Shown piece by piece: positions 1-52,572 of a stretch of DNA of 52,572 nt; position 1 is the stretch's first letter, and the number at the start of each line of letters is the position of its first letter. A model generated the notes under the pieces. The model had not been told where the DNA came from. It searched no databases and worked only from the letters and a program-made list of their open reading frames with translations. The DNA comes from a virus (taxonomy: Duplodnaviria; Caudoviricetes), in IMG/VR virus record IMGVR_UViG_3300032308_000777, positions 1 to 52,572 of that record; one strand, given 5' to 3'. Both the position numbers and the translations under genes were made by a program.

Positions 1-123
1 CAAGCTGGCCAAGCTGCTCAAGGGCACTCAGGAGACCCTGCCGGCAGCAGAGCGTCAGGCCAACCTTGCCAAGTTCATTGAGCCTAGCAAGGTGCAGCAG
101 CGCCTGTACCACGGCACCACTGC
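1..123. repeat. Terminal direct repeat, copy 1 (identical to 52450-52572); circular assembly overlap
   Basis: First 123 nt match the last 123 nt exactly and an ORF reads through the junction in frame. Confidence 0.95.
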
Positions 124-3100
124 CACTGAGGGCGGCAAGAAGCAGGAGGCCATCCGCCGCTTCAAGCCCAGCAAAGAGGGCGCACTCGGCTCTGGCGTCT
201 ACATGACACCCAAGCCCACTTACGCCGGCGAGTACACCAGTGGGGCTGGCGGCAACATGCTGCCGGTCTATGCCCAGATCAAGAACCCTCTGGTTATTGA
301 GGGCAAGGGCGACCCGATGATCGAGGCGCTGATCAAGCTCGGGATCGATGAGAACAAAGCCGTCAGTATGGTGGAGCGGGCCTACGAGAACAAGGGCTAC
401 ATCGGCAAGGAGGTGGAGTCCCGTGCCCGTGCTGCCGGCTACGACGGCCTGATGCAGTACCGCGACGGCGACCTGAGCGAGGTGGTGTCCTACAACCCCA
501 ACGCGGTCAAGTCGGCCATTGGCAACAAGGGTACATACGACACCAACAAGCCCGACCTGAACGAGGCCGCTGGTGGTGCTGTTCATATGCAGGCCGGTGG
601 TATTGCTCGGTTGCTCAATGCTGGAAAGGGCGCGAAGAAGACCCCGCCTGCCGCTGAGACAAAAATCATCCAGGCCCCAACGGTAGTAGTTCCCAGCAAG
701 TTGAGCAACGTCAAAGAGGCGGTGCGTCAAAGCAAGGGCGACTACGGCGCTCGGCGGGTTGAGCGTGCTGCCGACGAAATCCCGAACCTTGAGCGGATGT
801 ACAAGGAAGAGGGGCTTCGCTCCGCCTTCACTGGTGACAACGCTCAGGCTTTGATGACCATGAACCCTGCGGACTTTGAAAAGTTTGCACTGCCATTGGT
901 CAAAAGCAAGGGGGCCAGAGGCCCCATGAGCAGCAGCGGGGAAGTCGACAAGTACACGCTACCCACTGACGAATACGTCCAGTACCTCCAGGGGTTACGC
1001 GGCGGCTTTTCGGATGTTCCGTTTTTGGGCATCAACAAAGAAGAATACGGTCTGCCGCTCAAGCCTTTTATTTCGGGCCACGAGGGGCGTCACCGTAGCC
1101 GAGCTTTGGCACAGTCCGGTCAGCCCACAAGTCTGGTTCGACTGGTTCCCCGCGCTGAGTTGCGTGAGCCATTCCCGCGCCGTACTCAGGAAGAGTACAT
1201 CCAAGCGTTGCGTGATGAACTGGACTTGACTGGCAACTTGGTCATGCCTGAAGGGGGTGCCGGATCCGCGGTTGTTCTGCCTGACATTTACGCCAAGGGT
1301 GGCGAAGTCCGCATGAAGAAGGGTGGCGAACCGGTTGATCCGCGCTTCCGCACTGCTGGCGGTGACCCGCTCAATGAGTTCGTCCCCCCGCGCTACCGCA
1401 GTGCTGGCCGCCGGCCGGAGTCGCAGCAGGATCGCGAGGCATCAAAGAACGTTCCGGTGGCTGTTGCCCGCGGTCTGGTGTCTGGTTCCCTGGGTTTGCC
1501 GGCAGACTTACTGAACCTGCCCGGTGCTATTTATTCCGGTGTCACCGGCAAAGAATCCTACGAGTTGCCGTTCGGTTCCGAATACATTGAGAAGCGCCTA
1601 CCCTTCCGCGGCGCGAGCCAGACGCCGGTAGGTGAGTTGTTCACCGGGTCTGGCCAGTTGGCTGGCGGCTTCTACACCGGCCCAGGATCTGGCGCTAGGG
1701 CTGCGATGGCCGTACCCAAGGCGATCAAGCGGGCTGTTCAAGACTTTGCTATGGCTTCGACCGAGGGCGTCCCTCGGATGTTCATCGGCCCCAAGGCCAA
1801 GACATGGGATCGGGCCAAGGCAGACGCTGCCGCCCGCCTGGAGCAGGAGGGAAGAGATCCTGTGGATATCTGGCGTCAGACCGGCACCTTCCGCGGCGCT
1901 GACGGCATCCAGCGCCAGGAGATCAGCGACGTTGGGGCGATCTACCGCAACCCGACGGATCTCAAAGAGTTGGGCAAGCAGAAGAAGCAAGAGGCCCTTG
2001 ATCTACAGCAGCGTATGGTCACGCCGATGGGCCAGAAGGACATGTTCCCCAAGGCCCTTACGGAGGCCAGAAAGCCTGCCCGAGAGCAAGTCAAGCGCCT
2101 GAAAGAAGAGGCCGACGAGCTTGGCCGCTTCTCGGATGTCCGTGGCCAGAGCGCCAAGTTTGTGCTGGAGCATCCCGAGTTGTACCGGGCATATCCTGAG
2201 CTTGCGGACATAAATGTCTTGCAAGGTGGCCGTGGCGTTGGAAACGAGAGAGCATCATTGATAGGTGGTAAGAACGACATGGAGATGGAGGTCACCCAGT
2301 CGGGCTTGAGACAAAATCCGCGCTCGAGCATGCTCCACGAGATGCAGCACGCCGTTCAGACTCTAGAGGACATGGCGCCCGGTGGACTCCCGCGGATGGC
2401 TTTCCAAGACCCGAAGGCTTTTGAGATCTTGAAAGACTTGCGAGCCAAGGCGTCAACTCCTATGAGCTTTGATGAGTACGCCGAGCGGTATTCCCATCTG
2501 GCCAACAAGGAAGCCGGGTATCAGGATTACCTGAAGTCCATCCCTGGCATCGTCAAGGGCATGGACCGCGAGCTTCAGAGCCAAGCCGCGATGGAATACT
2601 ACAAGCGGCTGGCTGGTGAGGCAGAGGCCAGGGCTACCCAGACACGCGAGGGGATGACCGCAAGTCAGCGAGCGCAAGATTTCCCGTATGGCAGCTACGA
2701 CGTTCTGCCCGAAGATCTGATCGTCAAGCCGGTAAAAGAAAGCGGAATTCAGGCTCAAATTGATTTTGACCAATTAAAGTCCGGTGGAATTGAAGTTCCG
2801 TCTGCCGGGTTCAGCAAGGAAGACAAAGTCAAGCTGCGACCGCTTTATAACCAGGGCTTGATCCGGGTTGAAGAGATAGGCGGCAAGAAAATGATTGTTC
2901 CGGGCAGGGGTGCTTGGTACGAGTTTGCGACACCAGAACAAAGAACAACGCTTGATTCTTTGCAAAGAAGCGATGGCGTTAGAGACCTCACATTGATGGG
3001 CCCCACCGAAAGCCTTCTCAATTCGGCGCAAGCCAGCTTCTTTGATTTTGAAATTGTTCCCGGGGTCAGAAATGTCCCCATTAAAAATCTTGAGCCGCTC

Positions 3101-4822
3101 TTGCCTGGATATGATTCGCCAAATGAGATGAGAAGGATTCAAGACCTTTCTGATCAGATTAAAGAGTCCAAACAAATTGAGCCTCTTTTCATTGGTGTTG
3201 ACCCGACTGGCTCTCAGTACATTATGGAGGGACAGCACAGAATTCGAGCGTTGAAGGCGCTTGGATATGATGAGGTTCCGGCTCGAATTGTTGTGGACAT
3301 GGATGACATTGAAAAAGCCAGCGGCGGCGAGGTGAAGATGGCCGGCGGTGGTTTGTCAAAAGTTGCCATAGAGGCCATGTCTAAATTAAAGGGCATGAGA
3401 AAAGAATTCGTTGACAATGCCGCTGAACAAGCTCGATATAAAAAAGAAACAGCACATATATCAACCAAAGATTTGCCAAGCTTTGAAGAATGGAAAGCCC
3501 AGCAGATCAACGTTACTCCTGAGAACATTGAGCAGTTGAGGAAAGAGACCGGCAATCGGGCCGGAGGCGAGGTCAAAATGCAAGCCGGTGGTGCGGCCGG
3601 GATGATCAAGAACTTGCTCAAGGGCGCTCAAAAGGCCGAGAAGGTTGAGCATCCCCTAGTGTTCCCTCGGGCAGAGCCAAAGACCAGGGAGCAGATTCGA
3701 CCCATCGCCCAGCGTGTGTCCGAACAGATGACTGGTGAGTTCGTCCGCCAGAACCCCAAGGTCACCACGAACCCGGCAGGCAAGTCCCGCAAGCAGTTTG
3801 AGCGCGAGCGGAACATCCCTCTTGAGACTCGCAACGTCGTGCCCGAAAGAACGGCGCCGGTGTTGGACTACGAGAAGTTTAAGGACTACGCGATTGTCGG
3901 CGTCCCAGGCGATCCATCAATGGGTGGTGTAGCCAAGGCCGGCAGCCTGAGTGAGTCGGCCAAGCCAACGGTCGAGCTTACCCGCGTGGGAGACATTACG
4001 CCAGATTCCCCTGTGCCACTGTTTGGTGGCCCTCGCTTTGGTGATGACGAGAAGTTCTGGGCTTCCAACATCGGCGCTGCCAAGCCCATCCAGACCAACG
4101 TCACCGAGCTTTCTGAGTTATACGACTCGCCGGTGCTTGGCAAGTACATCAAGATGGCGCCCGACTCGGCCAACTTTGCGATCCACAATCTTGACTCCTT
4201 GCTTGCAATCCAGCGACCCGAGCGACTGAGCCCAGGAAAGATGGAGCAGTTGAACAAGGTGATCCGCGAAGGTTCTCCAAAGTATGGCAAGTTCCCGAAC
4301 TTCCCAGGGTTTGATGACCCCGTCGATGTTCTGCTTCAGTCGCAATTGAACTCCAAGCTGAGAAAGCACATCGCCGAGACCCTGACCAAGCCGACGATCA
4401 CCGACGAGTTGGGGCTGCCAAATGGCCTTGATGTGGTGACCGCCATCACGCACCCAGAACTCAGAAATTTGGAGACGGGCGTCAGTGGATTTTCTGTCGG
4501 CAGAATGCAGCCCGGCGCTGCTCTCAGGGCTGGCGAGTCATCTCACCCGACCTACGACACGGACATCCCTGGCGCCATGATTGGCCGCAGCAAGTACCCG
4601 ACTCCTTATGAGATCGCGTTTCCTGACACCACTGCATACGCTCGCAGTCAACTCAAGCCCGGCGTGCAGGAGTTCAACATGATGAAGTTGCTTGGCCCGC
4701 GTGAGCGCATTGACCAGCAATACATTGACGAGATGAAGATGTTCGAGGAACTGATGAAGCAGTACACCGGCAAGAAAAAGGGCGGCGCTGTTGGCGGCTT
4801 GTCCGCAGTTGAAAAGGTTTGA
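2..4822 (+). CDS. Large polyvalent protein, 3' part (true start 52262, ~1669 aa): ART-PolyVal-like ADP-ribosyltransferase, ParB/Srx-like, LPD23-like, zincin metallopeptidase, second ParB/Srx-like and unknown C-terminal domains
   Basis: LYHGT...GVYMT...PVYAQIKNPL (ART-like); GHEGRHR and MEGQHRIRAL (ParB/Srx); MFIGPKA...IWRQTG...GADG...EISD (LPD23-like); HEMQH...YKRLAGEAEAR (zincin); frame open from position 2; lies between terL and portal. Confidence 0.8.
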   Translation, partial: KLAKLLKGTQETLPAAERQANLAKFIEPSKVQQRLYHGTTATEGGKKQEAIRRFKPSKEGALGSGVYMTPKPTYAGEYTSGAGGNMLPVYAQIKNPLVIEGKGDPMIEALIKLGIDENKAVSMVERAYENKGYIGKEVESRARAAGYDGLMQYRDGDLSEVVSYNPNAVKSAIGNKGTYDTNKPDLNEAAGGAVHMQAGGIARLLNAGKGAKKTPPAAETKIIQAPTVVVPSKLSNVKEAVRQSKGDYGARRVERAADEIPNLERMYKEEGLRSAFTGDNAQALMTMNPADFEKFALPLVKSKGARGPMSSSGEVDKYTLPTDEYVQYLQGLRGGFSDVPFLGINKEEYGLPLKPFISGHEGRHRSRALAQSGQPTSLVRLVPRAELREPFPRRTQEEYIQALRDELDLTGNLVMPEGGAGSAVVLPDIYAKGGEVRMKKGGEPVDPRFRTAGGDPLNEFVPPRYRSAGRRPESQQDREASKNVPVAVARGLVSGSLGLPADLLNLPGAIYSGVTGKESYELPFGSEYIEKRLPFRGASQTPVGELFTGSGQLAGGFYTGPGSGARAAMAVPKAIKRAVQDFAMASTEGVPRMFIGPKAKTWDRAKADAAARLEQEGRDPVDIWRQTGTFRGADGIQRQEISDVGAIYRNPTDLKELGKQKKQEALDLQQRMVTPMGQKDMFPKALTEARKPAREQVKRLKEEADELGRFSDVRGQSAKFVLEHPELYRAYPELADINVLQGGRGVGNERASLIGGKNDMEMEVTQSGLRQNPRSSMLHEMQHAVQTLEDMAPGGLPRMAFQDPKAFEILKDLRAKASTPMSFDEYAERYSHLANKEAGYQDYLKSIPGIVKGMDRELQSQAAMEYYKRLAGEAEARATQTREGMTASQRAQDFPYGSYDVLPEDLIVKPVKESGIQAQIDFDQLKSGGIEVPSAGFSKEDKVKLRPLYNQGLIRVEEIGGKKMIVPGRGAWYEFATPEQRTTLDSLQRSDGVRDLTLMGPTESLLNSAQASFFDFEIVPGVRNVPIKNLEPLLPGYDSPNEMRRIQDLSDQIKESKQIEPLFIGVDPTGSQYIMEGQHRIRALKALGYDEVPARIVVDMDDIEKASGGEVKMAGGGLSKVAIEAMSKLKGMRKEFVDNAAEQARYKKETAHISTKDLPSFEEWKAQQINVTPENIEQLRKETGNRAGGEVKMQAGGAAGMIKNLLKGAQKAEKVEHPLVFPRAEPKTREQIRPIAQRVSEQMTGEFVRQNPKVTTNPAGKSRKQFERERNIPLETRNVVPERTAPVLDYEKFKDYAIVGVPGDPSMGGVAKAGSLSESAKPTVELTRVGDITPDSPVPLFGGPRFGDDEKFWASNIGAAKPIQTNVTELSELYDSPVLGKYIKMAPDSANFAIHNLDSLLAIQRPERLSPGKMEQLNKVIREGSPKYGKFPNFPGFDDPVDVLLQSQLNSKLRKHIAETLTKPTITDELGLPNGLDVVTAITHPELRNLETGVSGFSVGRMQPGAALRAGESSHPTYDTDIPGAMIGRSKYPTPYEIAFPDTTAYARSQLKPGVQEFNMMKLLGPRERIDQQYIDEMKMFEELMKQYTGKKKGGAVGGLSAVEKV

Positions 4823-4825
4823 CCT

Positions 4826-7363
4826 ATGGCTACAGAATTCCCCATTGACCCTGAGTTCAATCGTTTCGTTGGAGGCGAGCCCCAGGACCAAGACGACGAA
4901 GAGGGCGTCATCGTTGACATGCCCATGGACGAAGCAGAGATTGAGGAGCTTCCAGACGGCTCGGCCATCGTCCGCATGGATAGCAAGGGGCCGATGGAGG
5001 ATCAAGACTTCTACGCCAACCTAGCAGACGGCGACGCCACCAGCGCATATGACCTCGACAAGATGGCCCTGCGTTACATCGAACTGGTTGAGAAGGACAA
5101 AGAGGCCCGCAAACAGCGCGACAAGCAGTACGAAGAGGGCATCAAGCGCACCGGCATGGGCAACGACGCCCCTGGTGGAGCCAACTTCCAGGGCGCATCG
5201 AAGGTCGTTCACCCCGTAATGGCCGAGGCATGCATTGATTTTGCAGCTAGGGCCATCAAGGAGATGTTCCCGCCGGACGGCCCGACCAAGACCAAGATCC
5301 TGGGCGACGTTACTGAGGAGAAAACTGCGTCTGCCGAGCGCAAGCGCGACTACATGAACTGGCAATTGACCGAGCAGATCGAGGAATTCCGCGACGAGCA
5401 GGAGCAATTGCTCACCCAACTGCCTCTTGGTGGCTCGCAATACCTCAAGCTCTGGTACGACGAGAAGAAAAAGCGTCCCTGTGCGCAGTTTTTGCCCATC
5501 GACAACGTGCTTTTGCCCTTCGCATCGGCCAACTTCTACACCGCCCAGCGTTTTACTGAGGTTGACGACATCTCCGAGTGGGAATTCAAGCGCCGGATTG
5601 AGGCTGGGCTGTACAGAGACACCGCTCTGACCCGCGCAACGATGGACCCGGAGCCTACCGCGTCCCAAAAGGCCAACAACAAGATCGAAGGCAAGTCCCC
5701 GAACGAGAACGAGGACGGTCTGCGCCGGGTTTACCACGTCTACACATGGCTGGAACTTGAGGACGACCCGATCACCAAGGGCGATATGGCCCCGTACATC
5801 CTGATGATCGACGATCTGTCGACCGAGGTCATCGGTTTGTACCGGAACTGGGAGGAAGGCGACGACACGATGACCAAATTGGACTGGGTCATCGAGTTCA
5901 AGTTCATTCCTTGGCGTGGCGCCTACGCTGTTGGCCTGCCGCAGCTTATTGGAGGTCTCTCCGCGGCCCTTACAGGCTCTTTGCGGGCCCTTTTGGACTC
6001 TGCCCACATCAACAACGCTGCGACGCTCCTGAAGCTCAAGGGCGGCAAGATTTCTGGGCAGTCCCAGGAGGTCGAAGTCACCCAGGTTGTGGAGATCGAG
6101 GGCGCCCCAGGCGTGGATGACGTGCGCAAGCTGGCCATGCCCATGCCATTTAACCCGCCTTCGCAGGTGCTGTATCAGCTTTTGGGCTGGTTGACCAACG
6201 CCGCCAAGGGTGTGGTGACCACGGCCGAGGAAAAGATCGCCGACGTCAACTCCAACACCCCTGTCGGCACCACCCAGGCGCTGATTGAGCAGGGCGCGGC
6301 TGTTTTCTCGTCTATTCACGCCCGTTTGCACGAGTCTCAGGGGCGCGTGCTGCGTGTTTTGAGCCGGATCAACCGCTGGTACCTGGACGACATGCAGCGT
6401 GGCGAGGTCGTCGAGGATTTGGACATCAAGCGCGAGGATTTCATGCGGATCACCGACGTGATTCCGGTGTCCGACCCCCACATTTTCAGCGAAACCCAGC
6501 GGATGGCCCAGACCCAGGCGGTTATGGCCATCATGGACAAAAACCCGGACCTGTTCAACAAGCGGGCGGTCATTCAGCGCTTCCTCAAGCAGATCAAGGT
6601 GCCCGGCATCAACGAACTGATGACCGACGTGCCCTCTCCGGTCAAGCAGGACGCCGCCAACGAGAACGTAGCGATGGCCATCGGGCAGGCGGCCTTTGCT
6701 TACCCCGAGCAGGACCATTTGGGCCACATCCAGACGCACCTGGACTTCGCCAAGAGCCCGATCTTCGGCTCCAACCCAATGATTGCGCCTTCGTACCTGC
6801 CAAAGGCGGTGGATCACATCAAGCAGCACATTGTGCTGTGGTACCTCAACCGCATGAGCGGCTACGTCCAGAAGGCCATCGGCGGCAAGATGCCCGAGTA
6901 CGAGTTGCACAACGACCCGAAGATCCTAGACCAAATGTTCGGCGCCGCATCGCAGCATGTTGAGATGGATGCGGACCAGACCCTCAAGGGAATCCTGCCT
7001 GTCATCCAGCAACTCATGCAGGGCTTGCAGCAATTCAAGCCCCAACCGCAGATGCCGCCTGATGTCAAGGTTTTGCTGGATACCAGCATGGCCGAGACCC
7101 AACGCCGGCAGGCCCGCGATCAGGCCGAGATGCAACTCAAGGACAAGGAGCTTGCTGCAAGGATTCAGATGGACATGCAGGAGCTTGAGCAGAAGCAAGA
7201 GCGCGAGATGGAGGCCATGCAACTGAAGCTGGCCATCGCCCGCGGCGACAACGAGATGAAAGAGCGCATCGAGACAGCCCGCCTAACGCGAGATGCGGCC
7301 AAGCTCAACTTCGAGCAGGTCAAGGCTGTACAACCCCAAGGAGGCCAGTATGGCTATGAGTGA
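4826..7363 (+). CDS. Portal protein
   Basis: 845 aa; HPVMAEACIDF, RDYMNWQL and PVGTTQALIEQG motifs typical of podovirus-like portals; coiled-coil C-terminus; position. Confidence 0.85.
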   Translation: MATEFPIDPEFNRFVGGEPQDQDDEEGVIVDMPMDEAEIEELPDGSAIVRMDSKGPMEDQDFYANLADGDATSAYDLDKMALRYIELVEKDKEARKQRDKQYEEGIKRTGMGNDAPGGANFQGASKVVHPVMAEACIDFAARAIKEMFPPDGPTKTKILGDVTEEKTASAERKRDYMNWQLTEQIEEFRDEQEQLLTQLPLGGSQYLKLWYDEKKKRPCAQFLPIDNVLLPFASANFYTAQRFTEVDDISEWEFKRRIEAGLYRDTALTRATMDPEPTASQKANNKIEGKSPNENEDGLRRVYHVYTWLELEDDPITKGDMAPYILMIDDLSTEVIGLYRNWEEGDDTMTKLDWVIEFKFIPWRGAYAVGLPQLIGGLSAALTGSLRALLDSAHINNAATLLKLKGGKISGQSQEVEVTQVVEIEGAPGVDDVRKLAMPMPFNPPSQVLYQLLGWLTNAAKGVVTTAEEKIADVNSNTPVGTTQALIEQGAAVFSSIHARLHESQGRVLRVLSRINRWYLDDMQRGEVVEDLDIKREDFMRITDVIPVSDPHIFSETQRMAQTQAVMAIMDKNPDLFNKRAVIQRFLKQIKVPGINELMTDVPSPVKQDAANENVAMAIGQAAFAYPEQDHLGHIQTHLDFAKSPIFGSNPMIAPSYLPKAVDHIKQHIVLWYLNRMSGYVQKAIGGKMPEYELHNDPKILDQMFGAASQHVEMDADQTLKGILPVIQQLMQGLQQFKPQPQMPPDVKVLLDTSMAETQRRQARDQAEMQLKDKELAARIQMDMQELEQKQEREMEAMQLKLAIARGDNEMKERIETARLTRDAAKLNFEQVKAVQPQGGQYGYE

Positions 7364-7502: not shown

Positions 7503-7684
7503 AAACCATTGGCGACCTGATTGGTGGCATCAAGTCTAGGCAGGCTGAAATAGCCGCGTCCCTCGCTGCTGGTAATGCAGCGAACTGGGAGGCTTACCAC
7601 CGCATGGTCGGACATTACGCGGGCTTACAGGAGGCCCTTGACATCCTAAGTAACCTGATGAGGGAAGATGATGAAAATAAGTGA
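7499..7684 (+). CDS. Hypothetical protein (61 aa) of the portal-GroES interval
   Basis: ATGA overlap; NWEAYHRMVGHYAGL pattern; operon context. Confidence 0.7.
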   Translation: MKTIGDLIGGIKSRQAEIAASLAAGNAANWEAYHRMVGHYAGLQEALDILSNLMREDDENK

Positions 7685-8108
7685 ACCGGTAGCTTTTGAC
7701 GAAGCTGAGTTGGCTTGGGCTTTTCCGAGCGTAGACCCCGGTGCTAAACCTCTTGGCGGACGCATTCTTGTACAGTTGCGCCGCACCAAAAAGAAGGCAA
7801 CAAGCGCTGGGATTATTTTGGTCGAAGAAACCAAAGAGACCGAGAAGTGGCAGAACATGGTGGCCAAGGTCGTCGAGATTGGTCCGCTGGCATTCAAGCA
7901 TCGAGACACGATGCAGGCATGGCCAGAGGGGTCTTGGTGCGCCGTCGGCGACTACATCCGCGTCCCCAAGTGGGGCGGTGATCGTTGGGAAGTCAAAGTC
8001 CCCAACGATGACGATTTTGAGGATCCGGCACTGTTTATGGTTCTGAACGATCATGAGGTGATTGCAAAACTCACCGGTAATCCACTTGCGATGAGGGCCT
8101 TCCTGTGA
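7668..8108 (+). CDS. groES: Phage GroES-like co-chaperonin (Cpn10)
   Basis: KPLGGRILV, TSAGIIL mobile loop, VVEIGP, VGDYI, LNDHEVIA motifs. Confidence 0.85.
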   Translation: MMKISEPVAFDEAELAWAFPSVDPGAKPLGGRILVQLRRTKKKATSAGIILVEETKETEKWQNMVAKVVEIGPLAFKHRDTMQAWPEGSWCAVGDYIRVPKWGGDRWEVKVPNDDDFEDPALFMVLNDHEVIAKLTGNPLAMRAFL

Positions 8109-9051: not shown

Positions 9052-9594
9052 ATGGATACACGTCTCAAAAAAACTCTCAACGCCGGCGGCCGTGAGACAC
9101 GATCTTCGCAAGATCAGACCCGAGCCGCTCCCGAAGAGAAGTTCATGTCAGCGCAGGAACGTCGGAAGATGTGGAGCGATGAGTGGACACAAAGTGCGCT
9201 GCCAAAAGTTCCGGATATTCCGGGATGGCACCTTTGCTGGTTATCGACCACCAATGGATACGACAGCATTGATAAGCGGATGCGACTTGGCTATATACCT
9301 GTTAGCGCAGATGAATTGCCAAATTTCGAGAATTACCGCGTAAAGGCTGGCGAAGACATCGGTTTTATCGCATGCAACGAGATGCGCCTGTTCAAGATCC
9401 CAATGGAGATCTATCAGGACATCATGCTGCAAATGCACCATGAGGCTCCTCAAGAGGAGGCGGACAAGATCCGCGTCCAGGCAGAGAATCTTCAGGGAGC
9501 ACGCGATAGCTCAGGGAAATCCTTGGGTGCGGTTGAAGGCGAGGGATTTGGCAATTTCGACCGAACTGTGAAATCCCCTGTATTTCAGGGATAA
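9052..9594 (+). CDS. Hypothetical head-module protein
   Basis: 180 aa ORF in the head operon; PDIPGWHLCWLS...RLGYIPV. Confidence 0.7.
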   Translation: MDTRLKKTLNAGGRETRSSQDQTRAAPEEKFMSAQERRKMWSDEWTQSALPKVPDIPGWHLCWLSTTNGYDSIDKRMRLGYIPVSADELPNFENYRVKAGEDIGFIACNEMRLFKIPMEIYQDIMLQMHHEAPQEEADKIRVQAENLQGARDSSGKSLGAVEGEGFGNFDRTVKSPVFQG

Positions 9595-10194: not shown

Positions 10195-11109
10195 ATGGCC
10201 GCTCCAATGCGCAGTACCGACTTTCGGTCAATTGTTGAACCTATCCTGAACGAGTGCTTTGATGGTGTATACGACCAACGCACCGACGAGTGGAGCCGAG
10301 TGTTCCGCGAGCAGGAAGGTATCCCCCGTAACTACCACGAAGAGCCCGTCCTGTACGGCTTTGGCGCTGCCCCGCAGTTGCCTGACGGCACCCCCGTCAG
10401 CTATCAGCAGGGTGGTGTGCTGTTCCTCAAGCGCTACGTTTACAACGTGTATGGTCTGGCCTTCGCGCTGACCAAAGTGCTGGTTGAGGACGGTGACCAT
10501 ATCCGTATCGGTCAGGTTTACGCTCGTCACCTCGCCCAGTCTCTGGTCGAGACCAAAGAGACGCTGTCGGCCAACGTGCTGAACCGCGCCTTCAATGCCT
10601 CGTATCCTGGCGGCGACGGCGTGGCTCTGAACAGCGCCTCGCACCCCATCGTCAACGGTACCACCAGCAACCTGCTGGCCACCGCTGCCAACCTGTCGCA
10701 GACCTCGCTTGAGCAGATGTTGATCCAGATCCGTCAGGCTGTGGACAACAACGGCAAGAAGATCCGTCTGGTGCCCCGCCAACTGGTGGTCGCTCCTGGC
10801 AACGTCTTCCAGGCCGAAGTGCTGCTGAAGTCTGTGCTGCGTGCTGGCAACGCCAACAACGACATCAACCCCATCAAGTCCATCGGCTTGCTGGACGAGG
10901 GTGCCGCTGTTCTGTCGCGTCTGACCAACCCCAGCGCATGGTGGGTCCAGACCGACGCTCCCGAGGGCATGAAGCTCTTGATGCGTCGTAAGCTGGAGAA
11001 GACCATGGAAGGTGACTTCGAGACTGATTCGATGCGCTACAAGGCCACCGAGCGTTACGATGTTGGCTTCACCGATTGGCGTGCCATGTATGGCACACCG
11101 GGCGTCTAA
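10195..11109 (+). CDS. Major capsid protein (Mu gpT-like, HK97 fold)
   Basis: 304 aa; GGDGVALNSASHP, PRQLVVAP, DFETDSMRYKATERY motifs; strong RBS. Confidence 0.9.
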   Translation: MAAPMRSTDFRSIVEPILNECFDGVYDQRTDEWSRVFREQEGIPRNYHEEPVLYGFGAAPQLPDGTPVSYQQGGVLFLKRYVYNVYGLAFALTKVLVEDGDHIRIGQVYARHLAQSLVETKETLSANVLNRAFNASYPGGDGVALNSASHPIVNGTTSNLLATAANLSQTSLEQMLIQIRQAVDNNGKKIRLVPRQLVVAPGNVFQAEVLLKSVLRAGNANNDINPIKSIGLLDEGAAVLSRLTNPSAWWVQTDAPEGMKLLMRRKLEKTMEGDFETDSMRYKATERYDVGFTDWRAMYGTPGV

Positions 11110-11849: not shown

Positions 11850-12977
11850 ATGGGTCAATTCAAGCCAATGGTCAAAATGATGACCACTGAGCCCTCGGTT
11901 GAACTGAAGCTCAAAAAAGGCGGCAAGGTTGAGAAGAAGATGCAGATGGGCGGCATGCCCGCTCCTTCAATGCCTGCTCGCGGTGGCATGATGCCCACTG
12001 CTTCCCCTGGGCGGCCTTCGATGGCTGCTCGTCGTCGTGCAATGATGGCTATGCCTGCCGGTGCTGCTCCTGCGGCCCCGGTTGGTATGGCTGGACGCAT
12101 GATGAAAGAGGGCGGCGAGTCCAAAGCCATGCACAAGTCTGAGATGAAGGCTATCAAAGGCCTGAAATCCGAGATGCAGTCCCACAAGGACAAACCTGCA
12201 TCAAAGGCCCACAAGGGCCTGAAGACCGGCGGCATGGCCTGCGCTACGGGCGGTGTAGTCATGGGCCAGGGCGGCTACAAGAAGGGCGGCATAGTTAAGA
12301 TGGCTGGCGTTCCAAAGAGCGGCATCATCAACACCGAAAACCAAGGCGGTGCTTACCGTGACACCATGATGCACACAGCCAAGCCTGATAACTCGCCGGC
12401 CAAAACCGGTGAAGTGAAATTGGGCAACGGCGGTGGGTATGCTACCGGTGGCGTGGCGAAGGCAAACGGCGGCGGATACCGCAAAGGTGGTGCCGCAAAA
12501 AAAGCCTACGCTACGGGGGGTCTTGTTGACACCGGCCGTCCCGTAGCGATGCCCCAGGGTCGCAAGACCCCATCGACTCCCGTGAGCATCAACCAACTCT
12601 CTGGCACCTTCAAGAAAGGCGGCAGTGTCACTGCTGCTCAAGGCCGCTTGCAGAAGAACTTCAAGAGCGAGAACGCTACGGCCATGAAACAGGCCAAGGC
12701 GTACTCCAACGAGGTTTACAGCAAGTACGGCAAGAAGATGAACGAGGGCGGCAAGGTTGACATGTCCAAGGGCGCCTACGACAAATCAATCGGCCCGACC
12801 GAGGAAGAGATGGGCATGGCCAAGGCCATCCGTTCAATTCCTCGCCGGATGATTGAGGGTGCAAAAAGCCTGTTCACCTCAAAAGAGGCTGAAAAGCCTG
12901 CCGGATCTGTTACCAAGACTGAGAAGTCCGTGACTGTGTCTCCTGGCAGAAAACGTGGCGGCGCAGTGAAGTGTTGA
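11850..12977 (+). CDS. Basic low-complexity protein with 12 or more hydrophobic-x-x-GG repeats
   Basis: 375 aa, K/G/M/A-rich; LKKGG, MKEGG, YKKGG, YATGG x2, YRKGG, FKKGG, MNEGG etc.; AAGGAG RBS. Confidence 0.8.
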   Translation: MGQFKPMVKMMTTEPSVELKLKKGGKVEKKMQMGGMPAPSMPARGGMMPTASPGRPSMAARRRAMMAMPAGAAPAAPVGMAGRMMKEGGESKAMHKSEMKAIKGLKSEMQSHKDKPASKAHKGLKTGGMACATGGVVMGQGGYKKGGIVKMAGVPKSGIINTENQGGAYRDTMMHTAKPDNSPAKTGEVKLGNGGGYATGGVAKANGGGYRKGGAAKKAYATGGLVDTGRPVAMPQGRKTPSTPVSINQLSGTFKKGGSVTAAQGRLQKNFKSENATAMKQAKAYSNEVYSKYGKKMNEGGKVDMSKGAYDKSIGPTEEEMGMAKAIRSIPRRMIEGAKSLFTSKEAEKPAGSVTKTEKSVTVSPGRKRGGAVKC

Positions 12978-18115: not shown

Positions 18116-18793
18116 ATGTTCTACACATACGCACACTTCAGACCAGACAACTCGGTGTTCTACATCGGGAAGGGCCGTGGTCGTCGTGCGTGGTCAAGGG
18201 ACTATCGCAATAACCATTGGAACCACATTGTTGCCAAGTATCCTGACTACAAGATTGAAATCTTGGCACGATGGGAAGACGAAAAAGAAGCTTTTGCTCA
18301 CGAAGTGTTTTTGATTGAAACTTTTCGGGGCATGGGCGTTCAACTGACAAATGTCACCAATGGTGGAACGGGCGTTGCTGGTTACAAACACACGCCTGAA
18401 TCCATTCAAAAACGATTGGATTCCATGCAAGGATATTTGCCTTCAGAGGAAACTAAGGCAAAAATGCGCGAAGCCCATCTGGGTGAAAAGAATCATTTTT
18501 TTGGGCGCAATCATTCCGAAGAAACAAAAAATCGAATTGCTGAAGCCAAAAAAGCAAACCCATCTAAGCCATGGCTTGGCAAGCCAAGAAATGAAGAGAC
18601 ACGCAAAAAAATTGCTGATGCTTTGAAGGGGCGTGTTGGACACAAACATACTGATGAGTCAAAGCGCAAATTGTCTTTGGCTCATAAAGGCAAAAAACAA
18701 GCATCGCCCAGTGAGGAAACTAGAAAAAAATTGTCTGAATCCATTAAAGCATCATGGATTCTTCGTCGTCAAAAAGTAAGAAAAGAGGTTTAA
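18116..18793 (+). CDS. Free-standing GIY-YIG-like homing endonuclease with NUMOD3 repeats
   Basis: FYTYAH...VFYIGKG; repeated HSEETK/HTDESK; AT-richer than its flanks. Confidence 0.85.
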   Translation: MFYTYAHFRPDNSVFYIGKGRGRRAWSRDYRNNHWNHIVAKYPDYKIEILARWEDEKEAFAHEVFLIETFRGMGVQLTNVTNGGTGVAGYKHTPESIQKRLDSMQGYLPSEETKAKMREAHLGEKNHFFGRNHSEETKNRIAEAKKANPSKPWLGKPRNEETRKKIADALKGRVGHKHTDESKRKLSLAHKGKKQASPSEETRKKLSESIKASWILRRQKVRKEV

Positions 18794-29643: not shown

Positions 29644-32600
29644 ATGGCTATTAAAAGAATAGAAGTGCCGGTTAGGTGGGAAACCCAAGGGGATGAAGAT
29701 CTGCCCCCTAATGTCTATTGGGTAAGCGACAAGTACGATGGCCCGTATGGCGGGAACTTTAATACTAAAGAGCAGGCGCTAGCATACGAAAAGTACAAAG
29801 GCAAGCCAGATCAAATCCCTGGGCTGAAGGAGGCTGCTGATGCTGCCACTGGTGTTGACTACTATGATGGTAATGGAGATTTGGTTACATCCATAGACCC
29901 AGCAAAACGTCAGGAGTATATTGACCGCGCAATGAACAGCCCATTAGACTGGGTCGGTCAAAATGTCGACTGGAGTGGCACGGGCTACGGGGGAGATTTT
30001 TCTGCCCTTGATAAACAAGTTCAATTTCTCAAAGACAACAAGTATGACACAAGCACCCTCGACAAGGGTGCATTAAATCAATACAACCTGACCAAGCAGA
30101 TTCTTGACCAGGGCACTACTAGTAAATGGTCTGGCGCTGGCTTTGGCAGCCCCACCGAAAACGCCAAACAGATGGCGCGTGTCTTAAACTCGGCTGGTAT
30201 CGAAGACATCAAAGACTTTGGAAAAATTAAGAAAGATAACTTTCAATTTTTTCCTGTTCAAGAGGAAACTGATTTTCAGGGAAACGGAACAGGTAAATAT
30301 TTTACTGTTGACGTATCTGACAATAAATCTTATGTTGATCCAAAAGATGTTTCACTTCAGCAATTCTACGACCCGGAAGGTTTCTCATACCAAGCACCTT
30401 CTATAAGAAAAAACATAGGCACAGAAGAAGTTTATGGAAACAAAAAAACCAACCAAGCCATAACGCAGGACTACAACGCCGCAGGCGGTAATATTTTTTC
30501 CGGCACATACGCAGGGCATGGCCGTACCAACTATGGGGTGAAGTTTTTAGACGATGGGACGCCTGTTTTCTACACGCAGTTTGGTGGAGACACCAGCAGC
30601 ATGGCAGACATTGCGCCAATCATATCTTTTCTGTCTGTTATTCCATCCCCCCTACAGCCGTTCGCCGCTGCTGCAAATGCACTAATTTCGATTGACAACG
30701 GCAACACCTTGGGGGCCTTGGCTTCTCTTGCCGGCATACCTGGGGTGAGCGAGGCTATCGGAGCGGCTGGTCTTGCAACCGTCGCAGAAGGCATCCAGAC
30801 CGCAAATAAAGTCGTCAACTTGGTCAACGCGGTTGAGTCCGGAAATGTGGTCGCATTGGCCGCCGCCGCTGGCAGTGCGCTTGGTGCTGGTTCTACTGAG
30901 ATTGGAGACACTGGTTTTACGGTGTCTGACGCCATGAAGGCGGCCAATCTTGTCAAGGCAATAGATAGCGGTGATCCGACCTCCATATTTAATGCGGCGG
31001 TTGGCTTTGCTCAGTCTCCAAACATCAACAAGGCTCTCAACAACCAGAGCACGACCATAACGGCTGATGGGCAAAAAGTTGCAGATCTTGTTGACAACAA
31101 TTTTGTCGCCGAGTTAGTCAACCCGAATTCTGACAGTTTTCTTGGAAATTCCGAGTCGAGCATAAACACTGCCTTGGCTTTGGCTAGCGAAGTAAAGCCT
31201 GTCTCCTCGCCAGTTGAGTTTGAGGAAAAACTTCCTGACTTGCTTGCTCCGGTGGTTGTTCCGGGCGCAGAGAATTTGGCCAATCTTATGGGTGGTCAAG
31301 GCGTAAATGTTGCTGGCCCCTTATCGGTTTCGGTTGCGCTGCCGTACAACTTGGAAAACTTGCCAAAAGATTTCCCAGTACCGGCTGGTTACAGGGTTTT
31401 GTCCAGAGAGGAAATGTTTGGCTCCCCTCGAGAGATGCAGGATGCTGGCATTGACGTAAGGTATTCAGACGACATTGACGGTAGGACCGCTCTTCTTGTT
31501 CCAGAGTCAACTGGGAAGATAACGCTTGAAGATGGACAAGTTAATATTGCAACAACGACGCCATTACAAGCTGTTGATCAAGTTCCAAGCGCAATTACAA
31601 GTGGCGGCGCCGCTGACGATGATGCCATAACCACGCTTGCCAATTCTGGCGGCTCCGAGGATGCAGTTACCCTTCTTGGTGAAACTGACAATGTTTCTCA
31701 GCCGGCGCAAGAGCAGCCCGCTGTAACTACGCTTGAGCCGTCTATCACGCCCCCTGAAGCTTTGGTGCCTGACGCATCCAACCCAAACCTAGAGGCCGGT
31801 AAAACGCCCCAGGAGAGGGCCGCAGAGGAGTGGCAACGGTACCTTGATAGCCTAGAGAATAAGCCGGCCGATCTAGACCTTCCTGGATCAACCATTGAGG
31901 CTGGGGAGTACTGGGACGAGTACAACGCGAACCTCAAGCGCATCATGGATAAGGGCGGGTACACCAGCCAGTGGCAGAACGTCAACGGCGACAAAGTCTT
32001 CGTCAACGACGACGGCACGGCCATTGGAATCACTCAGGATGGCGGCACCTACCCCCTGTCTAACACCCAGGTCGAAGAAATGGTCGGTAATGGCCTGCTT
32101 AACACGGCCGAATCTGGGTACGTTGACGCGACCGGTGGGACTGGCAACACCCCAGGCGGGACGCTCGATGAAGACAAAGAAACAGAGAGCCAAGAATGCC
32201 CGGAGGGATACGTTTTTAACCTGAACACTCGAACCTGTGTGCCGGTTGAGGCGGAGCCAGAAAACCCATGCGGCGAGGGCTTTCACTTTGATGAGGCTCG
32301 TGGAATATGCGTTGCTGACACCGACACAAAAGAAGATGAGGAGTGCCCGGAGGGTTACGTCCGCAATCTGAACACTGGTGCCTGCGAGTTGGTTTCTACG
32401 TCACCTCCTCCATCCCGTCCTCCGCCGCCTTCTGCGTCCCCTCCTCCGCCCCCTCCTCCGCCGCCTCGCAGGGTTGTACAAAACCCTACTGTCAATCCAG
32501 CGGAACCTCCGATTTCAAGGGCAATCCCAGACGAGCCGATGCGTCGCATTGGCCTACCTATATACGAGAAAATGTCAAACTTCGAAGGCCCCCTTTCTGA

Positions 32601-33168: not shown

Positions 33169-33170
33169 AA

Positions 33171-34289: not shown

Positions 34290-34313
34290 TAAAAAAGTAA
34301 TGAGGGCTTGAAT

Positions 34314-50041: not shown

Positions 50042-50635
50042 ATGCCAGAAACCGCCAAGAAGACCGCCGCAAAGGCGCCAAAACAGCCTCAGAAGGCCGC
50101 AAAGCCCAAAGCCAAGGGTGAGGTATCCATCGCGCCGCAAAAGCCTATAGAGCCCATAAAGAAGATGGGCCGCCCATCCAAGTACACCCCAGAGATCGCA
50201 CGGCAGATGTGCGAGCTCCTAGCAGATGGAGTCCCCCTAAGACAAATCTGCCGAATGGACGGCATGCCAGCATGGAGAACGGTGTATGACTGGATGACGC
50301 GAGATGAGGCTCTTTCCGCATCCATCGCACGCGCTCGTGAAGTTGGCCAGGATGCCATTGCCGAACAGGTCTGGCTAGACATCAACCTTCCTCCTGAGCG
50401 GATCCTGTCCGAGGGTGGTGGCCGGATCGACTCGGGCTATGTTCAATGGCAGAAGGCCAAGGCCGAGATCGCCCTGAAGCTTCTGGCCAAGTGGAACCCG
50501 AAGCGGTATGGCGACCGGGTTCAATTAGCCGGGGATGCTGACAGCCCAATCAAGATTGAGGCGGAGGTGCAGGCAGAGAACCTGCTGACCGCGATGCTCA
50601 ACAACGTCGAGTTGAAGAAGCAGGCTGATGACTGA
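50042..50635 (+). CDS. terS: Terminase small subunit
   Basis: GRPSKYTPEIA, LRQIC, MPAWRTVYDW, KWNPKRYGDR; directly upstream of terL. Confidence 0.85.
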   Translation: MPETAKKTAAKAPKQPQKAAKPKAKGEVSIAPQKPIEPIKKMGRPSKYTPEIARQMCELLADGVPLRQICRMDGMPAWRTVYDWMTRDEALSASIARAREVGQDAIAEQVWLDINLPPERILSEGGGRIDSGYVQWQKAKAEIALKLLAKWNPKRYGDRVQLAGDADSPIKIEAEVQAENLLTAMLNNVELKKQADD

Positions 50636-52046
50636 CATGGCCGAGATCCTCGCCGACCCGGAGGTCCAGGCGAGTCTCAAGGCGGCTAGGCCGGAGTTCA
50701 GGCTTGCCTGGGCATGGCGGATGTCCTGGTTCCAGGTCCAGCACAAGCATCAGGTGCTGCCTCATGGGGACTGGTGGTCGATCTGGCTGATGCTCGCTGG
50801 CCGCGGTGCCGGCAAGACCCGGACGGCCGCGGAGCAGATCGGCTGGTGGGCCTGGGAGAACCCAGGCACCCGCTGGCTGGTGGCCGCCCCGACCTCGAGC
50901 GATGTCAGATCAACGTGCTTTGAGGGCGACTCCGGCCTGATGACGGTAATTCCCTCTGCCCTGGTTGCCGACTACAACAAGGCCCTCCACGAACTCAAGC
51001 TGATCAACGGCTCGCTCATCAAGGGTATACCCGCATCGGAGCCTGAGCGCTTCCGGGGGCCACAATTTCATGGAGCGTGGTGCGACGAGCTGGCCGCCTG
51101 GGATTACCTTCAAGACGCCTGGGACCAGATCATGTTCGGTGTCCGACTGGGCCAGCGCACCAGGATCATCTGCACCACAACCCCGAAGCCCAAGGACTTG
51201 ATCGTCGAGCTTGTGGGCCGGGAGGGAGACGACGTCGTGCTGACGACCGCCTCGACTTACGCCAACCTTGCGAACCTGTCTGACAACTTCAGGAAGCAGA
51301 TCCTTCAATATGAGGGGACGACCCTGGGCCGCCAGGAGATCTACGCCGAGATCATCGACCCCGAGGAAGGCGGCATCGTCAGCCGGGACATGTTCAAGCT
51401 TTGGCCGGCCGGCAAGGCTTTCCCGAAGTTCGAGTACATCGTCCAGTCCTACGACGTGGCCACTTCCGAGAAGGTGCAGAACGACCCGACGGCCTGCATT
51501 ACCTTTGGCGTGTTCAAGCCCCTAGACGGCCCGATGTCCGCAATGGTCATCGACTGCTGGCAGGAGCGCATGCAGTACCCGGATCTGAGGCCAAAGGTGA
51601 TCGAGGAGTACGAGACGGTCTTCGGCGAGGGCAAGGACAGGAAGCGGGTGGATCTGCTGTTGATCGAGGACAAGAGCGCCGGCATCAGCCTGATCCAGGA
51701 CTTGCAGCGGGCGCACCTGCCCGTGCGGGCCTACAACCCTGGCCGGGCCGACAAGATGCAGCGGCTGAACATCGTCAGCAACATCATCGCCCGCGGTCGG
51801 GTCTGGATACCCGAGTCGGACGCTAGGAAGGGGTTCGTCAAGGACTGGGCCGAGGGGTTCGTGAGCCAGATCTGCTCGTTCCCAGCGACCACTCATGACG
51901 ATTACGTCGATGCCTGCACCCAGGCCCTGCGATATCTGCGGGACGCCGGCTGGCTCGAGATCGACCCGCCGCCTCAGGAAGACTGGGACGACGAGGACTA
52001 TGCCGATACCGGCAGACAACGCAGGGTAAACCCGTATGCAGTCTAA
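50628..52046 (+). CDS. terL: Terminase large subunit
   Basis: AGRGAGKT, RGPQFHGAWCDE, TTTPKP, QSYDVA, IEDKSAG, FPATTHDDYVDA. Confidence 0.95.
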   Translation: MTDMAEILADPEVQASLKAARPEFRLAWAWRMSWFQVQHKHQVLPHGDWWSIWLMLAGRGAGKTRTAAEQIGWWAWENPGTRWLVAAPTSSDVRSTCFEGDSGLMTVIPSALVADYNKALHELKLINGSLIKGIPASEPERFRGPQFHGAWCDELAAWDYLQDAWDQIMFGVRLGQRTRIICTTTPKPKDLIVELVGREGDDVVLTTASTYANLANLSDNFRKQILQYEGTTLGRQEIYAEIIDPEEGGIVSRDMFKLWPAGKAFPKFEYIVQSYDVATSEKVQNDPTACITFGVFKPLDGPMSAMVIDCWQERMQYPDLRPKVIEEYETVFGEGKDRKRVDLLLIEDKSAGISLIQDLQRAHLPVRAYNPGRADKMQRLNIVSNIIARGRVWIPESDARKGFVKDWAEGFVSQICSFPATTHDDYVDACTQALRYLRDAGWLEIDPPPQEDWDDEDYADTGRQRRVNPYAV

Positions 52047-52269
52047 AGATATGAATAAGGCCTGGACGATCACGCCAAACGCGGTCAGTTGCGCAAAGTC
52101 AACGGTGTGCCAGAACCGGCTCGAGTTGCTGGTTGATCCGGGTATGCGGTCGGAGTCTATGGCGAAGTGGGCGCATGCTGCGGTTGATCATTGGCTGGCC
52201 TCGAGGGTGGACTTGACAAGCCCCGACGTTTATGATGTCGGCACTGTGAAAGGGTCCGGACATGGCTAA
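52036..52269 (+). CDS. Hypothetical protein (77 aa)
   Basis: Fills the gap, overlapping the terL stop and the next start. Confidence 0.5.
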   Translation: MQSKDMNKAWTITPNAVSCAKSTVCQNRLELLVDPGMRSESMAKWAHAAVDHWLASRVDLTSPDVYDVGTVKGSGHG

Positions 52270-52572
52270 GGCAATCGAGAAACTCAAGGCGATGGCTAAA
52301 GCGCGGTCGTCTGCGCAAGCGCTCAAGAAGTGGGCCGAGTCCGGCGGTGACGTACCTTTGAACTACAAGGGCCGCGAACATGTCTGGGCCAAGAAGGTCA
52401 AGAAGTTCGCCGAGGGTGGCGAAGCTCAGATGCAGGCTGGAGGGATCGCCAAGCTGGCCAAGCTGCTCAAGGGCACTCAGGAGACCCTGCCGGCAGCAGA
52501 GCGTCAGGCCAACCTTGCCAAGTTCATTGAGCCTAGCAAGGTGCAGCAGCGCCTGTACCACGGCACCACTGC
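52262..52572 (+). CDS. 5' part of the large polyvalent protein (continues at position 124)
   Basis: ATG 52262, MAKAIEKLKAMAK...FAEGGEAQMQAGGIAKL; no stop; in frame with 92..4822 through the terminal repeat. Confidence 0.85.
   Translation, partial: MAKAIEKLKAMAKARSSAQALKKWAESGGDVPLNYKGREHVWAKKVKKFAEGGEAQMQAGGIAKLAKLLKGTQETLPAAERQANLAKFIEPSKVQQRLYHGTT
52450..52572. repeat. Terminal direct repeat, copy 2
   Basis: Identical to 1-123. Confidence 0.95.

Follow-up and report, generated by a model that had tools for sequence, protein, structure and literature searches.

The window analysed here, that is, the whole stretch of 52,572 bases of the IMG/VR record IMGVR_UViG_3300032308_000777 (positions 1–52,572), has a G+C content of 55% and encodes a 1669-residue multidomain protein punctuated by a 13-residue, glycine-rich motif, which is the subject of this report. 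The end of the window repeats its start over exactly 123 bases (1–123 = 52450–52572), which indicates a phage genome that is complete at 52,449 bp and circularly permuted, unless the repeat is a short terminal redundancy or an assembly overlap. The gene of the 1669-residue protein crosses the junction and sits in a slot between the large terminase and portal genes (Table 1), and the same slot is occupied in related loci. Between the portal and major capsid genes lie, in order, genes for a GroES-like and a scaffold-like protein and two small genes, and beyond the capsid gene come SU10-type adaptor and nozzle genes and genes for large putative ejection proteins, a layout that is podovirus-like. 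On sequence grounds, the motif is a specific protein-level signal that lies at the cassette ends of cargo-type proteins in one phage clade, and some other component must read it.

The product of the slot gene is identical to database protein P0001. It is encoded by a phage, adjoins virion genes (terminase and portal) and combines several unrelated effector domains, including ART-PolyVal, LPD23 and ParB_N of Pfam; it belongs to the polyvalent proteins as described by Iyer, Burroughs, Anand, de Souza and Aravind (2017; PMC5512222). Like the proteins for which that term was introduced, it has ART-PolyVal, LPD23, ParB-like and HExxH modules, is encoded beside head genes and is presumably delivered with the DNA; a MuF anchor domain was not detected in it by Pfam. 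Two module labels of the first-pass annotation of this DNA need revision. The name ‘ParB-like’ for module 2 is not borne out by Pfam, PHROGs, PDB sequences or the Atlas, where look-ups of module 2 and of the basic protein encoded at 11850–12977 yielded nothing usable. The name ‘zincin’ has as its sole basis the HEMQH sequence at residue 842, for which Pfam gave no peptidase match; all 61 homologues having that module carry HExxH. The most conserved module is the C-terminal domain, which in about 20 homologues is not C-terminal and is sometimes N-terminal or central. Its structural model is good (pLDDT 86.6, pTM 0.84), and its BFVD matches are uncharacterized phage proteins only; the proteins that contain the domain, among them stand-alone ones of ∼420–470 residues, are all uncharacterized and from phages.

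Table 1. Features of the window that bear on the motif
Feature	Position	Strand	Remarks
Polyvalent gene, 5' part	52262..52572	+	start ATG at 52262
Polyvalent gene, remainder	2..4822	+	gene ends at 4822; joined product 1669 aa
Motif copy 1 (FAEGGEAQMQAGG)	52406..52444	+	follows 47-aa conserved leader; 33.2 bits
Motif copy 2 (EAAGGAVHMQAGG)	563..601	+	directly behind ART domain; 39.7 bits
Motif copy 3 (YAKGGEVRMKKGG)	1289..1327	+	border of modules 2 and 3; 36.6 bits
Motif copy 4 (KASGGEVKMAGGG)	3314..3352	+	abuts end of ParB_N; 32.5 bits
Motif copy 5 (NRAGGEVKMQAGG)	3554..3592	+	precedes conserved C-terminal domain; 29.2 bits
C-terminal unit KKKGGAVGG	4772..4798	+	aa 1654-1662, 16 aa from end, in stretch with pLDDT <50
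ART-PolyVal ADP-ribosyltransferase module	101..535	+	aa 97-241; Pfam E 1.4e-16
LPD23 domain	1778..1930	+	aa 656-706; Pfam E 6e-9
HEMQH, candidate zincin active-site motif	2336..2350	+	aa 842; no Pfam peptidase match
ParB_N-like domain	3131..3313	+	aa 1107-1167; Pfam E 1.7e-4, below cut-off; supported by PHROGs
Conserved C-terminal domain, 409 aa	3593..4819	+	confident predicted fold, no PDB relative
Portal	4826..7363	+	downstream neighbour of slot gene; no motif
Major capsid protein	10195..11109	+	no motif; Pfam Phage_capsid_4
Gly/Lys/Met-rich basic protein, 375 aa	11850..12977	+	9 units, 19 GG
DUF6321 protein, 172 aa	13805..14323	+	weak units MKDGGVV and MKSGGVS
Large terminase	50628..52046	+	upstream neighbour of slot gene

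The first-pass annotation had listed five copies of the motif and a terminal KKKGGAVGG in the polyvalent protein, and all of these are present (Table 1), the first glycine of the five copies being residue 52, 254, 496, 1171 and 1251, respectively. No further match to GG[EA][VA]xMxxGG was found in the six frames of the window. The composition of the protein predicts 0.00014 matches to this pattern, compared with the five seen; 20,000 shuffles of its residues gave three strict matches in all, and 20,000 GG-preserving shuffles gave 19. The motif is thus far commoner than composition predicts, and chance is excluded as its origin. Scored with a position matrix from which the window's protein had been left out, the five copies reach 29–40 bits, whereas the best of 60 shuffled proteins reaches 5.2. 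The copies had also been described as equally spaced, which is true only within each copy, where the spacing GG-6-GG is constant, and false along the protein.

A search of 5.8 billion proteins yielded 443 relatives of the polyvalent protein, and 103 of the best 120 of these contain at least one GG-6-GG element, with 213 instances in total. The consensus is [KYMF][AK]xGG[EA]V[HK]M[AQ]xGG, with Val at position +3 in 171 and Met at position +5 in 160 of the 213 instances and Lys in place of Met in 25; the flanks are unconserved apart from a Lys/Ala-rich stretch behind the motif. Within the linker, a hydrophobic residue, Ala/Lys and the glycine pair recur eight residues apart (−3, −2, 0 and 1, then +5, +6, +8 and +9). 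This exact recurrence implies that the 13-residue linker is a tandem pair of the unit hydrophobic-[AK]-x-G-G-x-V-basic, and single units are indeed commoner than pairs outside the linkers. About 10 of the 213 instances are look-alikes of the form GGxRxSLxGG, which lie inside the HExxH module and are distinct from the linker. The look-alike is found ∼35 residues upstream of HExxH in P0003, P0027, P0032, P0048, P0053 and P0109, corresponding to residues ∼800–815 of the window's protein, in which the first GG is GN; within the peptidase-like module it is possibly a substrate-pairing edge strand.

All copies had been said to lie at module boundaries, and they do. BLAST segment ends of 119 homologues cluster at copies 1, 2, 3 and 5, and domain ends coincide with copies 2 and 4: ART-PolyVal ends 10 residues ahead of copy 2, and copy 4 begins at the residue after ParB_N. 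The converse does not hold, as segment ends also cluster at two borders that are free of the motif, at about residue 650 and at residues 970–1000. When 203 proteins were compared all against all, internal segment ends proved 6.4-fold enriched within 15 residues of a motif (15,780 versus 2,461 expected), and at least three segment ends lie close to 262 of the 270 internal motifs, compared with 38% of random positions. Furthermore, the modules of the query occur in 56 different orders among the 119 homologues. Together, the variety of orders and the enrichment of segment ends bear out the expectation that modules are exchanged at the linker.

Since modules do swap at the motif, the signal might reside in the nucleic acid, either as a recombination junction, as the first-pass annotation had proposed for the linker DNA, or as an internal ribosome-binding site with an ATG for each module. 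The codon pattern GGN-GGN-GAG-GTN-NNN-ATG can resemble a Shine–Dalgarno sequence followed by a start codon, and one database protein, P0125, begins at the motif Met. However, the five copies use the same codon at just 3–5 of their 7–10 identical residues, and their longest common runs measure 5–12 nt; such differences between copies imply that conservation acts at the protein level. Moreover, in 108 distinct instances the first motif Gly is encoded by GGC 59 times, by GGT 47 times, by GGA once and never by GGG, whereas GGA and GGG make up 12% and 14% of the background Gly codons in large genes. The motif Glu is GAG in 29 of 48 cases versus 67% in the background, and the substitution of Lys for the would-be start Met, noted above, points the same way. 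Protein-level conservation and the avoidance of Shine–Dalgarno-like Gly codons speak against the two nucleic-acid readings alike, recombination at the DNA level and translation from internal starts. We rejected the latter on codon usage and the former, as the main cause of conservation, on the shortness of the shared runs, and a nucleic-acid signal of either kind is very improbable. GGT is over-used at the first motif Gly (47 of 108 versus 22% in the background).

The distribution of the motif over the proteins of related phages was assessed in 85 loci, assembled with the portal as bait (80 fetched of at least 593 IMG/VR matches) and through the C-terminal domain (6, one of them shared), in which 1,712 open reading frames (ORFs) were scored with a threshold of ≥15 bits. 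Matches fall in homologues of the polyvalent protein (85), in syntenic proteins of the terminase–portal slot that have no BLAST similarity to the polyvalent protein (9) and in homologues of the basic protein encoded at 11850–12977 (21); there was none in 84 portal, 63 terminase, 67 scaffold and 37 capsid ORFs or in 59 ORFs related to the 180-residue protein encoded at 9052–9594. Half-units number 286 in slot proteins (16 after shuffling), 353 in the family of the basic protein (9.4 after shuffling) and 13 in all other proteins having a homologue in the window (14 after shuffling). Of the three other late genes for which related motifs had been claimed, the one for the basic protein is thus a strong case and the one for the DUF6321 protein a weak one, with one to three weak units, whereas the gene at 29644 has two weak half-matches, which is about the chance level. 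DUF6321 is fused behind true linkers in database protein P0252. The product of 29644–33168, a putative ejection protein of 1174 residues, contains near its C-terminus the sequence FKQGGMATPLMAAGG (residues 1049–1063), a possible degenerate copy with 10-residue spacing that is insignificant by the matrix.

The basic protein deserves attention as the second major carrier. It consists of ∼16% Gly and includes 32 Met; its first unit is at residue 24, and its last is five residues ahead of the C-terminal Cys. The family comprises 37 distinct proteins of 312–470 residues with a net charge of +29 to +46 and 7–11 units, which feature Tyr/Met/Phe, Lys and Gly-Gly in a low-complexity composition. The N-terminus is conserved, the first unit being at residue 24 in 26 of 39 ORFs, and in 31 of 39 the last unit lies 4–5 residues ahead of the C-terminal Cys. 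All 38 loci that extend far enough have an ORF with at least five units no more than 4.5 kb downstream of the capsid gene; some of these loci come from one contig. The C-terminal Cys is nearly invariant in this family, and many tails of slot proteins end in Cys-x-Cys followed by acidic residues or His (...CGCHD, ...CACEE), so that the termini of cargo proteins might form a disulfide or bind a metal. The T7 protein gp7.3 (NC_001604) is likewise small, basic (net charge +10), rich in Gly (14%) and endowed with GG pairs, and is annotated as needed for infectivity; it was rejected as a relative for lack of any match to the unit pattern, and its gene occupies another position.

Low complexity, abundant glycine, high charge and many units in one protein raise the idea that the units of the basic protein and of the cargo associate with each other by weak, kinked β contacts, forming a cargo-rich condensate or internal body around which the procapsid assembles. 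In agreement with it, a protein of the basic family always accompanies motif-bearing cargo, and no separate receptor gene sets motif-bearing phages apart from their motif-less relatives. However, its basis is compositional throughout, strong positive charge disfavours self-association without a polyanion, and short proteins of this kind are also present in phages that have no polyvalent cargo gene. We therefore give self-association little credence.

Within slot proteins, units are concentrated near the termini. Among 77 slot ORFs, the last unit lies within 30 residues of the C-terminus in 54 (6.5 expected) and the first within 80 residues of the N-terminus in 42 (16.7 expected). Where the slot is divided between two genes, each gene has a unit ∼20–30 residues after its start, or 10–20 residues before its end, or both. 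There are six distinct slot proteins without a unit, and four of the six hold a degenerate C-terminal unit that falls outside the search pattern. Leaders ahead of the first unit are conserved, as are the tails behind the last (GLSxL/V), several of which end in Cys-x-Cys and acidic residues. The modelled C-terminal domain has pLDDT <50 in the 16 residues behind copy 5 and in its last 15 residues (395–409). The stand-alone proteins P0140, P0156, P0129 and P0130 start no more than about six residues from the point following the second GG in their fused relatives, and they finish with a C-terminal unit.

Such an arrangement bears on the simplest explanation of a glycine-rich linker, a passive flexible hinge that tolerates domain insertion and is conserved by descent or because it aids independent folding or unfolding during ejection. 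The motif is indeed rich in glycine and stands between folded modules, and the model of the C-terminal domain is of low confidence at precisely both of its flanks (residues 1–16 and 395–409). Yet the Val, the Met, the basic residue and the aromatic or Lys-Ala prefix are conserved across non-homologous contexts, units are placed at free termini and in the basic protein, where they have no domains to link, and the two other module borders of the polyvalent protein do without the motif. A purely passive role is accordingly improbable.

The motif is confined to a narrow group of phages. A degenerate DNA pattern retrieved 77 new loci from IMG/VR, and each of the 77 has the motif in frame within a long ORF; 73 additionally contain the terminase, portal or polyvalent family found here, and the remaining four are fragments of 1.5–3.4 kb. 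A profile of the motif matched, at E ≤ 0.001, only 202 of the 1.84 billion representative proteins, most of them large. A motif-bearing match to the polyvalent or the basic protein was found in just one of 50,697 phage records, the metagenomic MW202545. Judged by these searches, the motif is specific to one phage clade. A cultured phage outside the motif-bearing set, Caulobacter phage RW, for which the genus Riverwalkvirus has been proposed (PMC11053796), shares the portal, GroES-like, scaffold, 9052–9594-like and capsid genes (the last with 75% identity) and several tail genes; its terminase gene adjoins the portal gene, and it has no homologue of the basic protein and no ORF with two units. 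The terminase also adjoins the portal in ten metagenome bins among those with capsid proteins 72–79% identical. Two relatives without a slot gene (L219 and L226) encode a short basic protein with four units and a C-terminal Cys, which indicates that the basic protein is more widespread than the polyvalent gene and occurs without any polyvalent-borne metallopeptidase. Four others in which the terminase adjoins the portal (L220, L228, L229 and L230), and which are covered downstream of the capsid gene, have no unit-bearing basic protein.

Further features of these genomes concern the wider head and tail region. The GroES-like co-chaperonin gene (7668–8108), located within the head module, is kept in relatives including phage RW. 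A NUMOD3-type homing endonuclease gene (18116–18793) is inserted between two tail-fibre-like genes. In genome collections, matches consist of metagenome bins throughout, and their taxon labels are scattered. Near-identical capsid genes are present in bins L205–L253, which carry the labels of many unrelated phyla (Burkholderiaceae, Akkermansia, Nitrospira, Dehalococcoidia, Bathyarchaeia and others), an evident sign of misbinned phage contigs; Betaproteobacteria is the label of most of the closest bins.

What the signal is for comes down mainly to whether it is cut or bound, and the first-pass annotation had offered both, namely, a tag at which one translation product is cut into separate effectors or a tag that sorts proteins into the head. 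Cleavage after GG, at one or both pairs of each linker, would free the modules in the head or the host, would trim N- and C-terminal pro-peptides of single-module proteins and would chop the basic protein into small basic peptides, by analogy with T4 and adenovirus core proteins. Sites at module borders and near termini are in line with cleavage, conserved leaders ahead of the first unit fit targeting pro-pieces, and the dense sites in the disordered basic head protein resemble those of a core protein destined for degradation. The polyvalent protein itself has an HExxH module, and the main text of Iyer et al. (2017; PMC5512222) proposes that zincin-like metallopeptidases process polyvalent proteins and describes P1 DdrB as cleaved before packaging. 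The motif is, moreover, somewhat commoner in proteins with the HExxH module (53 of 61) than in those without (96 of 142, out of 203 proteins in all), and an enzyme of the host or an unrecognized enzyme is conceivable.

However, scans of ∼50 window proteins with Pfam and PHROGs detected neither a prohead protease nor any other peptidase family, although remote or novel proteases could escape such scans, and the HEMQH module is the sole protease candidate. Its role as a universal processing enzyme acting in cis was rejected, because 58 motif-positive proteins have no HExxH. The C-terminal domain was considered as a hidden peptidase and likewise rejected: despite its good model, the best PDB fold match has E 0.46, and it is not recognizable as a peptidase. 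Relatives without the polyvalent gene still encode unit-bearing basic proteins, and the usual substrates of phage proteases, capsid, scaffold and portal, carry no site. Finally, cutting needs neither a constant GG-6-GG spacing nor conserved tails past the last GG. Of the reading offered by the first-pass annotation as a whole, a specific and selected border signal that is common to another late protein stands firm; cleavage by a protease is possible and a serious rival, which we nevertheless consider less likely than docking.

In phage T4, the capsid targeting sequence is a single N-terminal peptide that guides internal proteins and Alt into the prohead and that the prohead protease removes at a Glu site. 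The motif resembles it as a short peptide on presumed head cargo that includes an ADP-ribosyltransferase and differs in that its glycine-based units occur repeatedly, within proteins and at C-termini too, and in that no prohead protease was found among the window proteins scanned. Proteins of adenovirus and African swine fever virus (ASFV) are processed at (M/I/L)xGG↓x and GG↓x, respectively, in the consensus quoted by the first-pass annotation, and share with the motif a Gly-Gly preceded by a hydrophobic residue and an occurrence in basic core-like proteins and polyproteins. Here, however, the hydrophobic residue precedes GG by three residues, occupying the fifth rather than the fourth position ahead of the cut, and is thus one place farther from GG than in the adenovirus consensus; a reading as M-x-G-G↓G is open only to the 55 of 213 copies in which position +7 is Gly. 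Further differences are the conserved Val two residues past GG, the fixed second GG and the motif-free capsid proteins. As for sites in core precursors, the basic protein is full of units, and there is none in the capsid, scaffold and portal ORFs of the 85 loci; a cognate cysteine protease of the adenain type was not found in the Pfam and PHROGs scans of the window. Double-glycine leader peptides offer no better parallel, as the motif is mostly internal or C-terminal and no gene for a C39 peptidase or ABC exporter was found among the window proteins scanned. The Dar antirestriction cargo of P1, which comprises large multi-enzyme proteins that are packaged in the head and in part cleaved beforehand (Iyer et al. 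2017; PMC5512222), offers a parallel to the slot protein. The main text of that work contains neither ‘linker’ nor ‘glycine’ (0 occurrences each), and its passages on zincin-mediated processing describe no conserved inter-module peptide. Literature searches by keyword on capsid targeting sequences and on cleavage at Gly-Gly in virions, which by their nature cannot find sequence patterns, brought up no description of the motif.

Of the two functions, sorting into the head fits best, considering the placement at termini, the two or three carriers in the head module and the retention of units on split genes. We tentatively favour, with a confidence somewhat short of even, the view that the motif is a docking or address tag recognized by another phage component, which directs cargo to the head. 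We infer that the motif is bound, not cut, and that it serves head loading, from several observations: fixed geometry over a 13-residue footprint is more in keeping with one bound epitope than with two separate cleavage sites, free termini retain units and conserved tails, the proteins that phage proteases usually process are devoid of sites, no protease was found to be encoded, and the motif is independent of the only peptidase-like module.

Under the docking hypothesis, each unit would be read by a conserved component of the head, for which the capsid interior, the portal, the scaffold, the 180-residue protein encoded at 9052–9594 and the basic protein itself are candidates, and the tag would bring cargo into the procapsid or retain it there for ejection along with the DNA. 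An effector module would then be a cassette tagged at both ends; fusion of cassettes into one polyvalent protein would place the tags at the junctions, and splitting of the gene would leave each piece with a tag near its termini. The same units fill the small, very basic protein, which is present in every motif-bearing relative examined. Among the candidates, the capsid protein is 89–98% identical across loci, which, given the joint inheritance of the head genes, would confound any co-variation of motif dialects with receptors; its predicted complex (30-row alignment) with a 36-residue motif peptide (50-row alignment) scored 0.00, the mark to be reached being 0.32, without controls, and speaks neither for nor against binding. 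The 180-residue protein, which was also considered as a possible hidden protease, is encoded between the scaffold and decoration-like genes and has a mean column identity of 85% over 46 phages, with H60, C62, C108, H129 and H130 invariant; it gave no family match and no PDB sequence match, and its AlphaFold model (pLDDT 40) is unusable.

Encapsulins load their cargo by short, glycine-flanked peptides of alternating small and hydrophobic residues, which are located at cargo termini and dock inside an HK97-type shell. They are the closest mechanistic analogy to the motif, and the terminal position of the units in most slot ORFs and the low confidence of the modelled tail match such peptides. The motif differs in sequence, in being multi-copy and internal and in that the shell is a DNA-packaging phage capsid, its binding to which is hypothetical. 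It is possible, if doubtful, that an encapsulin-like system operates here, in which the glycine-flanked eight-residue unit, single or in tandem, would dock interchangeable effector cassettes and the multivalent, disordered basic protein at a conserved site inside the procapsid or condense them there.

Several points weigh against docking and head loading. No receptor for the motif was identified among the candidates considered, and phage RW, L220, L228, L229 and L230, which share head genes and have neither the motif nor its carriers, provide no clue to one. The motif is absent from the putative ejection proteins (29644–37879), and a general role in head targeting is thereby excluded. Loading would require no more than a single tag on each protein, so that tags at every border are accounted for only by the cassette argument. 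Of the supporting observations, all but the constant geometry and the lack of a protease are equally expected for a cleavage site. The counts of borders, module orders and units derive from kindred sequences and not from independent events, and all motif-bearing relatives are metagenomic and hence come without virion proteomes. Tag and cleavage site could also both be true at once, as they are for the targeting sequence of T4.

Polyvalent proteins are thought to be injected arsenals against host defence, and a portable peptide that marks their cassettes in hundreds of related phages provides a handle on how they enter the head and on whether they act whole or in pieces. The motif predicts module boundaries, and it ties the cargo protein to a previously unremarked and universally co-occurring basic, glycine-rich head protein. 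It also suggests a way in which effectors are recruited, in that a module gaining the tag would become cargo, and the motif could be put to use in loading engineered phage heads. If the encapsulin-like reading is true, any tag-flanked module would be injectable, which would explain the terminase–portal slot as a hypervariable arsenal of effectors.

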